IMG/VR virus record: IMGVR_UViG_3300003322_000968
Coordinates: 13,573-77,572 of that record
From: a virus
Length of the DNA stretch: 64,000 bases
Strand: one strand, 5' to 3'
A program made the position numbers and the translations under genes. Positions 55,348-58,068 of the stretch are shown here, one piece after another. The notes under the pieces were generated by a model that saw only the letters and a program-made list of their open reading frames with translations, did not search any database and had not been told where the DNA came from. Positions within the stretch are counted from its first letter, which is position 1; each line of letters starts with the position of its first letter.

Positions 55348-56794
55348 GTTGTATCGAACCTGTACCTTTTAATTAAAACTAATACGCAATGTCGTTTTTT
55401 TGTATCAACCTTAAAATTCAATAAAACAGCAATGAATCATTCTTTGTATTAACCATGTAAGTTTACAAACAATCTATAACCGCCATGTTGCATCAACCTT
55501 GCAAACAAGGATTACAGACACCTACCATAATCCTTATTTTCTAACATGATAATTGTATCAACCTTGCAAATACCTTAATCAGCAGCTGCCGGAGGCCATT
55601 TGTCGTTGTATTAACCTTGAGAATTTACTAACAAATTTAATTATTGGTTGTCGCTTTTCAACCTGATTGTATCAACCTCGCAAATTAGAATTACAAACCC
55701 TGCAACACATTTTACTAACTGCAATTGTATCAACCTTGTAAAATTAGGAATTATAAACCCCAGCGCAAGGACGGCATTACCAAAGACCGAAGTTGTATCA
55801 ACCTTGCAAAATAGTGCTACAGCACCGGTAACTACTGCATTGTCCTTAACCTCGTTGTATTAACCTTGCTAAATGAAGCTACTTACAACATGGCCTCACA
55901 GTGGAGTTTCTATATAGAGCTGTATCAACCTTGCAAAATAGGATTACAAACACCAGAAAGCGCTGAGATGGCTGACTATTTGAAGTTGTATCAACCTTTC
56001 AAATTAGTCTTTTAAATCAAAAGACAATAAGTTGTATCAACCTTGCAAAATTAGTTCCCACATACAGCTCACCTCGGTGAAGGAAATTTTATCGGCTGGT
56101 TGTATCAACCTTGCGAATAAAGACTACATACGCCTGCAAAGCCGTGGGTGCGGTGAATACATAGTTGTATCAACCTAGTAAATTAGTATTATACACAGCT
56201 TATTCCTTTCTAATCATTATAAATTATCCGTTGTATCAACCTTGCAAATTAGTGCTACGTACAACAAAAAAGGATTTAATCCAATGGACGATTCTGCTGT
56301 ATCAACCTTGCAAATTAGGATTACAAACACCCACAAAAATTAGTAGCACTAGAGCTAGCCTGTTGTATCAACCTTGCAAATATGTGCTACATACAACGCG
56401 ATCCTGCCATGGCCCGATATATACATAGTTGTATCAACCTTACAAATTAGTGCTACATGCAACAACGGTCGCCAGGCTTTACCTTATCATTGGTGTTGTA
56501 TCAACCTTGTAAATTAGCGCTACATACAACCCTATCTTTTAAAGGATATTCATTATCACCGTTGTATCAACCTTGCAAATTAGTGCTACATACAACAATT
56601 TTAGAGGGCAGTCCTGAAGAGGTAGTGTTGCATCAACCTTACAAATTAGTGCTACATACAACAAGAAAAGATAAGGAAGATATGGATTTGCTGTTGTATC
56701 AACCTTGCAAATTAGTGCTACATACAACTTATATTCAAAAAGTATATTTTTTTAGTTAGTTGTATCAACCTTACAAATTAGTGCTACATACAAC
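55348..56794 (-). CRISPR. CRISPR array, 24 repeats/23 spacers, consensus (minus) GTTGTATGTAGCACTAATTTGCAAGGTTGATACAAC
   Basis: Repeat starts (+) at 55348, 55399, 55443, 55487, 55552, 55605, 55666, 55724, 55792, 55854, 55919, 55985, 56031, 56099, 56164, 56230, 56296, 56362, 56428, 56495, 56561, 56627, 56693, 56759. Spacers are 29-31 nt near the cas gene; units degenerate and shorten distally. Confidence 0.97.
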
Positions 56795-56859
56795 AGAGCT
56801 TTTGTAACCTATTCGTCATCATTGACTTGTGGTAGTTATTACTACAATATTTTTTAAAA

Positions 56860-56940
56860 AGAAGGTCATTCAGGAGTGGCAATTACACCCTCCTGCTCAG
56901 GCCAATACAAGTGGCCCCTAATATTTCAAAGATCTTATAT
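56860..56940 (-). ncRNA. Candidate tracrRNA/scaffold
   Basis: Minus-strand UUGUAUUGGCCU (56899-56910) pairs over 12 nt (3 G-U) with repeat 3' end AGGUUGAUACAA; followed by a CAGGAG...CUCCUG hairpin. Boundaries are approximate. Confidence 0.6.
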
Positions 56941-56946
56941 TGCGAA

Positions 56947-58068
56947 TTAGTTCTTTTCCACAACAATTGAATGATAAGCTGCTTTATTGGCTATCTTATC
57001 GCTCAAATTGTAATAACTCCATGAGGCTAGTAATAAGTTCGCTTCTTCTGTTCCCTCATGGGTTTGTTCCTTTGCCTCATTATAATTATTAAGAACAATC
57101 TTGCCTTTTCCATGCTTTAGACAATACTTTATCAACTCTCTCGCATAAACATGCATCCTGTTCTCAATGAAGTTCTTTTCCGCCGCCTTAAAACGCTCGA
57201 TTGACTGCAATTTTAATTCCCTGCCATCACCGCCTTGATTATATTTAGCGCCTGTTTGAACGCGCTGCAGCGCAGCTTTTATAGAATTACGACCATGTAA
57301 ATACTCCTCCTCGGATCCAATTGTATACATTCTATCTTTACCCTCTTTGATTATTATCGGGTATTTGATAGACAGATAGCAGTCAGCTACATTCTCTGTA
57401 TCCACTTTAATAACATCCTTCTCCCAGGAAAAAACTGCTAATAGAAAGAACTTATTATCCTTGATCTGTATTGAAGAGTCGCAAAACTTTACCTCGCCCT
57501 TCATGGCCATGTCCAGCATGTATTCTTTAGTGTGAGTGTCATTGGTGACCTTCTTTTTCTCATGACCAAACCATGTTTTGAATGGCGTTCCATATACACT
57601 AAAACTATAATTGCCATCCTCGTGTTTGGTCCAGTTGCTACTATCGCGCACCCGCATGGGTAAAGGTATATCCTTTTTATAACTTCGCAAAGATTTATTG
57701 CCAAGAAACATTTCTTTTTTCTCCTTCTTATATGTGTTACCAATTACGCTACTAAGGCCGGATAACATACCCATTGGACAATCACCCTTAAATAGCTTGC
57801 TTAATACTTGGTAGGTTGTATTATCCTTAGAGGTATTCAGGATGCCCGCAACATCGTCGGCTGACTTTTTAAGCTTTATCTTTACGTCTTCGGTTATGTA
57901 AAAGAAGTCTTTAATGTTATCTTGAATGTACAAGTGGGTTGATATCTGATTGGCGGCTTTACGAACAATACGCTGCCATTCATACCACTTTTTAAATAAG
58001 GCTTTTAATTCCTTAGGGTTATCTCCAATGTCAAAGAATAGTTGAATCTTGCGTGTTACAGTAGGCAT
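56947..58068 (-). CDS. Compact nuclease-dead Cas12f/TnpB-like RNA-guided DNA-binding protein
   Basis: Cas12f-like 'TRKIQL', 'SLRSYKKDIPLP', 'SSIQIKDNKFFLL', 'WSYYNLSDKIANKA'. RuvC-I GVDLG reads 'DCYLS', RuvC-II MEDL reads 'LNNY', and the protein ends before the Zn ribbon/RuvC-III; adjacent to the array. Confidence 0.85.
   Translation of the reverse strand: MPTVTRKIQLFFDIGDNPKELKALFKKWYEWQRIVRKAANQISTHLYIQDNIKDFFYITEDVKIKLKKSADDVAGILNTSKDNTTYQVLSKLFKGDCPMGMLSGLSSVIGNTYKKEKKEMFLGNKSLRSYKKDIPLPMRVRDSSNWTKHEDGNYSFSVYGTPFKTWFGHEKKKVTNDTHTKEYMLDMAMKGEVKFCDSSIQIKDNKFFLLAVFSWEKDVIKVDTENVADCYLSIKYPIIIKEGKDRMYTIGSEEEYLHGRNSIKAALQRVQTGAKYNQGGDGRELKLQSIERFKAAEKNFIENRMHVYARELIKYCLKHGKGKIVLNNYNEAKEQTHEGTEEANLLLASWSYYNLSDKIANKAAYHSIVVEKN

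Follow-up and report, generated by a model that had tools for sequence, protein, structure and literature searches.

The 64,000-nucleotide (nt) stretch described here, called the window in what follows, covers bases 13573-77572 of the 77,572-bp IMG/VR virus record IMGVR_UViG_3300003322_000968 and bears on its minus strand a compact module centred on dcas12f, a gene for a nuclease-dead relative of the miniature CRISPR (short palindromic repeats, clustered and regularly interspaced) nuclease Cas12f. The gene is followed by a 150-nt non-coding stretch, a CRISPR array and then genes for tRNA-Met and tRNA-Ile. A first-pass annotation, made from the letters alone, had described a phage-encoded dead effector with its own trans-activating CRISPR RNA (tracrRNA) candidate and a 24-repeat array, and each of these elements has held up. 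The record has a CheckV completeness of 100%, and because its genes include those for the terminase large subunit (phrog_6681, 4e-83), for a portal (phrog_6547, 6e-67) and, adjoining the structural module, for an integrase (window 27040-28182, plus strand; phrog_1, 3e-14), its carrier is taken to be a tailed, probably temperate phage. The absence of cas1, cas2 and cas4 noted for the window extends to the whole 77.6-kb record. The public runs containing this phage are root metagenomes from a single study, none of them RNA.

The dcas12f gene (56947..58068, minus strand) encodes 373 amino acids with REC/WED regions and a partial, C-terminally truncated RuvC domain, ending at IVVEKN. When the protein is compared with Protein Data Bank (PDB) sequences by phmmer, the 'Nuclease-deactivated Cas12f' from Flagellimonas (9n9c) is matched over residues 5-364 with an E-value of 2.6e-77, and active Cas12f nucleases rank next, at 1e-26 to 1e-9. 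Structure prediction agrees with this assignment, as the AF2 model built on a 38-sequence alignment (predicted local distance difference test score of 85) finds its best Foldseek matches in 9n9m and 9n9c, with template modelling (TM) scores of 0.76-0.81, followed by AsCas12f, Al3Cas12f and CnCas12f. No Pfam domain scores above its cut-off in the protein, and the NCBIfam model guided_TnpB reaches 48 bits, under its own cut-off.

Alignment to the Al3Cas12f nuclease (9nzo/9nzr) confirms the substitutions read by the first-pass annotation: the RuvC-I aspartate of GVDLG is replaced by Tyr231 in ADCYLS, and the RuvC-II glutamate of MER by an asparagine in LNNY. The RuvC-I column is not conserved across the 38 homologues, where R, E, S, Y, F, W, H and T are found, and all of them stop right after the last RuvC strand, with the zinc (Zn) ribbon and RuvC-III gone; the early stop that had been noticed is therefore the same truncation throughout. 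The Pfam TNB domain of Cas12f is present in a 482-residue relative (L044), but not in the array-linked dCas12f proteins L028 and L006. Judged by these alignments, it is strongly supported that the window protein is a dCas12f homologue without any of the three RuvC catalytic positions. Moreover, a low-depth strain in run X3, approximately 89% identical over 187 nt (57833-58019; also 56943-56995), differs from the record at 20 listed positions in the dcas12f open reading frame (ORF); as 19 of them fall on codon position 3 (p ~1e-8) and 20/20 are synonymous, purifying selection on the gene is strongly supported. The co-occurrence of this diverged dcas12f strain means that a related phage population shares the same root sample.

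Between gene and array lies a tracrRNA-like scaffold RNA of approximately 65 nt (56856..56922, minus strand), supported by covariation, a covariance model and minimum free energy folding. It comprises hairpin 1 (56900-56916), whose loop CUUGUAU (56905-56911) lies within the anti-repeat (56901-56912), hairpin 2 (56871-56895), a tail UGACCUU (56861-56870) and a T-run (56856-56860), all on the minus strand, and it is separated from the first repeat by an A/T-rich leader (56795..56855) that was read directly from the letters, with no promoter defined. Across 14 aligned loci, 98.9% of the stem cells are paired, compared with 38-48% in slid controls, and compensatory changes occur in 9 of the 13 stem pairs, in both hairpins; the single-sequence minimum free energy structure of the window RNA reproduces the same fold. 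The covariance model finds a sole copy in the window (58.5 bits, E 7e-17) and matches every dcas12f locus having downstream DNA, including loci outside the model-building set; the element lies 3' of dcas12f homologues on contigs from IMG/VR, on metagenome contigs and in a Chitinophagaceae metagenome-assembled genome (MAG). The model has no match in the Cas13b loci.

The scaffold also follows its repeat in sequence. The hairpin-1 loop complements the final ~6 nt of the cognate repeat, and the two change together from locus to locus (GTTGTA/TACAAC, GTTGTG/CACAAC, GTTCGG/CTCGAAC and GCTGTA/TACAGC), while the tail before the T-run is complementary to the AAGGUUG segment of the cognate repeat. Predicted scaffold-repeat duplexes average -11.5 kcal/mol for cognate and -7.4 kcal/mol for non-cognate pairs (permutation p < 5e-5; p = 0.012 for the hairpin-1 loop alone), tests that are inflated by relatedness among the loci. 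Since the complementarity itself is not produced by shared ancestry alone, we accept the scaffold, on these comparisons, as a real tracrRNA candidate.

Experiments have so far shown dCas12f only as an activator of transcription that is encoded on the chromosome, coupled to sigma-E and equipped with a single fixed guide. In the sigma-E-linked loci of the present comparison, the two hairpins run on into ...TATACAAC, then a short guide and finally a T-run, the layout published for the single guide RNA (gRNA); this fused form was found in L039, L040, L042, L043 and L007. We read the phage system as keeping in two RNAs, tracrRNA and crRNA, the guide that is a single fused RNA in the sigma-E systems, which agrees with the evolutionary path suggested in PMC13472631.

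Other arrangements of the scaffold were also observed. Several loci contain two to three copies interleaved with short arrays (L005:10321-10381; L028:8405-8464 and 8859-8918; L046:6395-6456; L047:6754-6816; L026:1431-1491), and in G001 one copy stands ~16 kb from the gene. At L003:8112-8240, on an IMG/VR contig, a scaffold without T-run is continued directly by a partial repeat (AAGGCTT) and then by a spacer-like stretch, of which a duplicate follows 132 nt later; the arrangement may represent a naturally occurring step between split and fused guides. The 65-kb phage G005 combines dcas12f with a fused single guide (L008:9118-9178; loop GCTGTA, junction TACAGC) that is followed by a sequence tRNA-like by appearance alone and has no target in the phage's own genome, and a second scaffold copy (L008:7589-7648) lies upstream of the gene.

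The array extends from 56794 down to 55348 on the minus strand. The count of 24 repeats stands, as 23 match the 3' core with at most five mismatches and the 24th is a remnant ending at 55348. Its leader-proximal part (56067..56794, minus strand) is regular, with repeats 1-11 of 36 nt, GTTGTATGTAGCACTAATTTGCAAGGTTGATACAAC, and spacers of 29-32 nt, followed by a decayed part of ~13 units (55348..56066, minus strand; spacing 44-68 nt) in which the 3' 14 nt, AAGGTTGATACAAC, are kept and the 5' half is lost. Overall, repeat positions 23-36 are 95% conserved, and positions 1-17 only 66%, falling to 46% in the distal half, as would be expected if selection acted only on a Cas12-type 3' handle of the CRISPR RNA (crRNA). 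The system had been described as multiplexed and updatable: the multi-spacer array agrees with the first term, and the second is not supported, as no adaptation genes accompany the array and its sequence does not vary among three runs of one study. The one weak hint of a shorter variant, a contig joint in a single run that skips 56597-56851 (depth 4.2, side 31), could be an older array without the newest units or a repeat-assembly artefact, and was not used as evidence.

The repeat belongs to a wider family, a point that the first-pass annotation overlooked. An exact scan of IMG/VR with the repeat core found nothing, and among 401 sampled Chitinophagales genomes there was no array of the window repeat (an array in G762 has a period of 77). 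In the Bacteroidota genome G133, arrays with repeats identical at 30-31 of 36 positions, and throughout the 3' 14 nt, adjoin a true Cas13b (NF038190, 821 bits). A 36-nt GTTG...CAAC repeat with 30-nt spacers is a type VI-B feature, and the phage array has it, but it cannot tell type V-F from VI-B because the locus of the full-length Cas12f-like L044 (482 amino acids, Bacteroidota), with a weak match to the scaffold model, has the same repeat family. Judged by its letters, this family is thus common to V-F-type and VI-B arrays in Bacteroidota, so that cross-talk, or spacer acquisition in trans, would be possible, and the phage tracrRNA is predicted to pair with the G133 Cas13b repeats as well as with its own. 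A host link to G133 is not indicated, because its spacers match none of the five phages compared. That the phage array is itself a Cas13b array was considered and rejected on the (d)Cas12f-specific scaffold RNA, the old repeats keeping only the 3' handle and the strand of the near-self spacers described below; the phage gives no match to the Cas13b model NF038190. As a side observation, the G133 Cas13b and arrays lie at L075:3800-7538 and L074:276-737, and their repeats vary exactly at GGT[AT][AG][AG]T, where, in other loci, the tail of the dCas12f tracrRNA pairs.

Four spacers from two phages resemble their carriers' own DNA. Spacer 6 of the window phage (G000; 56398..56427, minus strand) matches the phage's own minus strand at 29 of 30 positions (blastn-short E 1e-9), at a protospacer-like site (58213..58242, minus strand) located on the sense strand inside a hypothetical ORF (58069-58401, minus strand), 145 nt upstream of the dcas12f ATG, with the mismatch at guide position 8 and AAAATC as 5' flank. 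In G003, a syntenic sister phage, spacer 4 matches the terminase large-subunit gene (28/30), spacer 14 a terminator-like palindrome (28/30) and spacer 22 a structural-region gene (27/30). The E-values of these matches in both phages range from 1e-9 to 2e-5, the mismatches are mostly transitions, typical of strain divergence, and three of the sites are sense and one antisense or terminator, numbers too few to argue a strand bias alone. The simplest reading of such alignments is that the near-self spacers derive from close relatives of the carrier.

A word-based search recovered more than 140 homologues of 255-467 amino acids, most of them 355-420; a single-protein query of IMG/VR had found no related locus, and for the genome and metagenome scans an 18-row alignment was used, the 38-row one being too diverse. 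Gene contexts were compared at 7 IMG/VR, 9 metagenome and 8 genome loci. An array lies directly downstream in 4 of the 7 IMG/VR loci, and linkage to arrays is likewise seen in at least 4 of the 9 metagenome loci and in one MAG, so homologues do share the association proposed from the window alone. Besides the window, dcas12f without rpoE stands next to an array in L003, L004, L005, L006, L028, L045, L046, L047 and L050. One IMG/VR locus of the seven carries a fused guide, and another, L007, which lies at a provirus record's edge, has the canonical rpoE-dcas12f arrangement. The sister phage G003 is complete (76.6 kb) and syntenic with the window phage over the structural module, at 40-71% amino-acid identity, while its dcas12f, scaffold RNA and 33-repeat array sit at a different position; the metagenome loci L047, L050 and L051 also have phage-family neighbours. 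Among 401 sampled Bacteroidota genomes, six hold close homologues, and the five loci examined in four of these genomes are all sigma-E-adjacent. The dCas12f-linked sigma-E, sought by tblastn, was found in 5/5 bacterial loci and in none of the five phage genomes of the array type.

In a maximum-likelihood tree rooted on the 482-residue L044, with supports given as ultrafast bootstrap/approximate likelihood-ratio test, the sigma-E-linked rows form one clade comprising the five bacterial loci and L007 (82/83), and the 14 array-linked rows form its sister (87/89). The window protein stands within the latter in an eight-row subclade (100/99), together with the homologue of the Chitinophagaceae MAG (L028, 47% identity), in agreement with the dCas12f kinship first proposed. 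Of the members of the array-linked clade that could be placed, most are phage-borne.

Both the protein family and its array-linked members are already in the literature: Hoffmann et al., Nature 2026, noted in passing an array-associated cluster of dCas12f that lacks rpoE (PMC13472631, Extended Data Fig. 1a,b), and the array-linked clade of the present tree is that cluster, so that the novelty first claimed for this locus was overrated. In the phage, as in the published cases, a dead, truncated Cas12f without sigma-E has an array close by, with a covarying RNA in between. The published example, a bioinformatic side remark, comes from bacterial genomes, a Chitinophagaceae MAG whose one putative guide is directed at an efflux promoter, and the text does not discuss phages (PMC13472631), whereas here the carrier is a complete temperate phage with ~24 units whose spacers would point to sibling phages, and the intergenic RNA reads not as a single gRNA but as a separate tracrRNA pairing with every repeat. 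When the array of L028, perhaps the published MAG, was compared with its own genome, only the tandem scaffold copies were matched, and the published efflux-promoter target was not reproduced with BLAST-length matches. Relative to the literature searched, what is new is the carriage by phages, the split tracrRNA with its loop and tail covariation, the near-self spacers and the repeat family shared with Cas13b.

Compared to the dCas12f-sigma-E systems (Fta, 9n9c/9n9m), the phage module has the same protein family, RuvC truncation, two scaffold hairpins and ...ACAAC junction before the guide, with 36-39% identity to the sampled sigma-E-linked homologues and 36% to 9n9c in the structure alignment. 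It differs in being phage-borne, in belonging to the sister clade and in having neither rpoE nor hth beside dcas12f; one chimeric gRNA with a fixed guide of 14-16 nt is replaced by a tracrRNA and array crRNAs with 30-nt spacers, and the expected output would be repression instead of activation. With the type V-F Cas12f nucleases (Al3Cas12f 9nzo/9nzr, CnCas12f1 8hr5, AsCas12f 8j12) it has in common the fold, the miniature size and the pairing of tracrRNA with array, but its catalytic Asp and Glu are replaced, TNB/Zn ribbon and RuvC-III are deleted and cas1/cas2/cas4 are missing. The type V-M effector Cas12m is not known to use a tracrRNA; it is also a larger and distant type V protein (8pm4 appears at Foldseek rank 48, TM 0.44). 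The likeness to Cas12m lies in the carriage by mobile elements of an array without adaptation module and, for the proposed mechanism only, in the silencing of mobile competitors, Cas12m and Cas12c being natural non-cutting interference systems on plasmids and prophages (PMC11656645). Virus-borne mini-arrays (Medvedeva et al. 2019, PMC6858448) likewise lack adaptation genes and have spacers matching close relatives of the carrier, but they rely on a host effector, whereas the window phage brings its own dead effector and tracrRNA. Finally, type VI-B (Cas13b) arrays resemble that of the phage in the 36-nt GTTG...ACAAC repeat, the 30-nt spacers and the absence of adaptation genes from the locus; the phage differs from them in having no Cas13b and in keeping only the 3' half of the repeat in old units, and the Cas13b loci have no scaffold RNA.

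We lean, at slightly better than even confidence, towards dual-RNA-guided, non-cutting silencing of sibling phages by a sigma-E-independent, array-linked phage dCas12f module. The array would be transcribed from the leader on the minus strand, and each crRNA, consisting of the 3' part of a repeat and the downstream spacer, would pair with the tracrRNA to give a dual guide loaded by a dCas12f dimer, as in Cas12f and in the solved Fta dCas12f complex. The loaded complex would then form R-loops on matching DNA without cleavage, blocking the transcription, and perhaps the replication, of the target. Because the phage is probably temperate and the spacers match the carriers' genes only imperfectly, closely related phages that superinfect or co-reside would be the main targets, and the outcome would be a programmable superinfection exclusion by the lysogen, harmless to prophage and host chromosome; partial binding 145 nt upstream of dcas12f could add autoregulation. 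There are precedents for both halves of this proposal, as Cas12m silencing acts in competition between mobile elements (PMC11656645) and virus-borne arrays target related viruses (PMC6858448), and the array-linked dCas12f cluster was itself predicted to be repressive by Hoffmann et al. (PMC13472631).

Several points weigh against silencing of siblings. The expression, processing and ends of the tracrRNA are all deduced from the letters, and binding and silencing by analogy with Fta dCas12f, which is an activator and not a repressor. No perfect target of the spacers was found in INPHARED (blastn of the array, one chance-level hit), in IMG/VR (exact scan with spacer 6, the only one scanned there), among 401 Bacteroidota genomes (chance-level spacer hits only, apart from the look-alike repeats of G133) or in the four other dCas12f phages. 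Moreover, the 5' flanks of the four near-self sites, on the side of the target-adjacent motif (TAM), are ATC, CTG, CTG and TTT, the distal half of the array is decayed and the support of the array-linked clade is only moderate (87/89).

Foremost among the alternatives, though unlikely, is self-regulation, in which the array would tune the phage's own genes (lysogeny maintenance, late-gene timing) through the mismatched sites, namely that of spacer 6 upstream of dcas12f and those in the terminase and structural genes of G003. The significant spacer matches were found solely in the carriers' own genomes, Fta dCas12f works with 14-nt guides and tolerates mismatches beyond a short seed, and the integrase marks the phage as temperate. 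However, carrier-matching spacers amount to only 1 of ~20 here and 3 of 33 in G003, their mismatches fall at guide positions 8; 3 and 9; 11 and 20; and 3, 8 and 14, all but position 20 within the first 14, and they resemble neutral divergence from a donor phage. In a dedicated regulator, one would expect the guides to stay perfect, as they do in the sigma-E systems.

Activation, which is also improbable, would have dCas12f recruit a host extracytoplasmic function (ECF) sigma factor with a dCas12f-binding C-terminal domain (CTD), or an unrecognised phage partner, with transcription starting ~46 bp downstream of the targets. The closest solved relative is an activator dCas12f, and the truncated RuvC surface corresponds to the binding site of the sigma-E CTD (10.1101/2025.06.10.658880). 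The spacer-6 site would also fit, being sense and 145 nt before the dcas12f ATG, so that a start 46 bp downstream of the TAM side would read into the gene, with positive feedback on dcas12f and the array; in addition, the G at -1 of the Fta TAM is present at two of the three near-self sites of G003. Nevertheless, neither Sigma70_r2 nor r4_2 has a match at E <= 1 across the whole 77.6-kb phage, no sigma-70 r2/r4 gene lies beside dcas12f in four other phage records, and the sigma-E loci (five bacterial and L007) belong to a different clade. Sigma-E and dCas12f co-evolve tightly, with the CTD almost confined to dCas12f-linked sigma-E (Hoffmann et al., PMC13472631), and the near-self targets lie within structural genes and not upstream of operons. 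A partner protein for the array-linked clade was rejected because no gene adjoining dcas12f is conserved across the compared loci.

On a par with activation, and thus also doubtful, is the idea that dead Cas12f reads host Cas13b pre-crRNA too, which it could do because the repeats are one family and the tracrRNA would pair with either 3' end. The protein might then soak up anti-phage guides or convert an RNA-targeting memory into DNA-binding guides; conversely, the host machinery that feeds VI-B arrays might refill the phage array in trans, and, in a related idea, phage dual-RNA modules could be the stock from which the domesticated sigma-E systems were drawn.

Counter-defence or hijack as the principal role is less probable again. 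Here the tracrRNA and dead effector would capture host crRNA or pre-crRNA of Cas13b or of an active Cas12f, as a sponge or for retargeting, or the array would feed a host effector with dCas12f secondary. The near-identity of the G133 repeats to those of the phage, their predicted equal pairing with its tracrRNA and the missing adaptation genes suit this view, and a phage dead Cas9 with tracrRNA has been proposed to sequester crRNAs (PMC11656645). On the other hand, the phage retains its own long array with 30-nt spacers, its old repeats keep the Cas12-type 3' handle and not the full hairpin needed by Cas13b, and three of the four near-self spacers, being mRNA-sense, would be useless to Cas13b. 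From locus to locus, the scaffold RNA varies in step with the phage-borne repeats, and the 401 sampled Chitinophagales genomes contain no array with the window repeat.

Lastly, a functionless relic of a decaying, host-captured type V-F locus is very improbable and already disfavoured, as the degenerate distal array, missing adaptation genes and lost nuclease residues are set against an intact ORF with only synonymous differences between co-occurring strains, a truncated architecture conserved in more than 100 homologues, a conserved and covarying scaffold RNA and repeat 3' handle, and the recurrence of the module in unrelated phages.

The locus shows the dCas12f family as a multiplexed system of tracrRNA plus array, carried by a temperate phage. 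If silencing of sibling phages is correct, phages would use a natural CRISPR interference for superinfection exclusion, and a non-cutting effector would have been chosen that is harmless to a prophage sharing sequence with its targets. The transition from split to fused guides proposed by Hoffmann et al. (PMC13472631) gains direct sequence evidence, with the same hairpins either free or fused, and whether arrays derived from type V-F cross-talk with those of type VI-B in Bacteroidota becomes a testable question. The locus also offers a putative programmable DNA binder of 373 amino acids with natural 30-nt spacers.

Regarding the wider surroundings, a megablast comparison of the window with INPHARED phages gave no match. 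Beyond the distal end of the array, tRNA-Met(CAT) (54625-54696, minus strand) and tRNA-Ile(TAT) (54450-54539, minus strand) were called by ARAGORN and Rfam. On the other side of the module, a DNA methyltransferase (61071-61700, minus strand; phrog_757, 4e-55) is followed by an HNH/homing-endonuclease-like protein (61719-62159, minus strand; phrog_559, 5e-23). The virion module contains a protein of 1817 amino acids (5157-10610, plus strand) with phrog_9854 (function unknown, 1e-50) as its sole match. A few kb downstream of the CRISPR module, a HigA-like helix-turn-helix antitoxin (51854-52294, minus strand; phrog_1381) and an XRE-type repressor-like protein (53566-53991, minus strand; phrog_8/4/3) are encoded, possibly for the control of lysogeny or as a toxin-antitoxin system.

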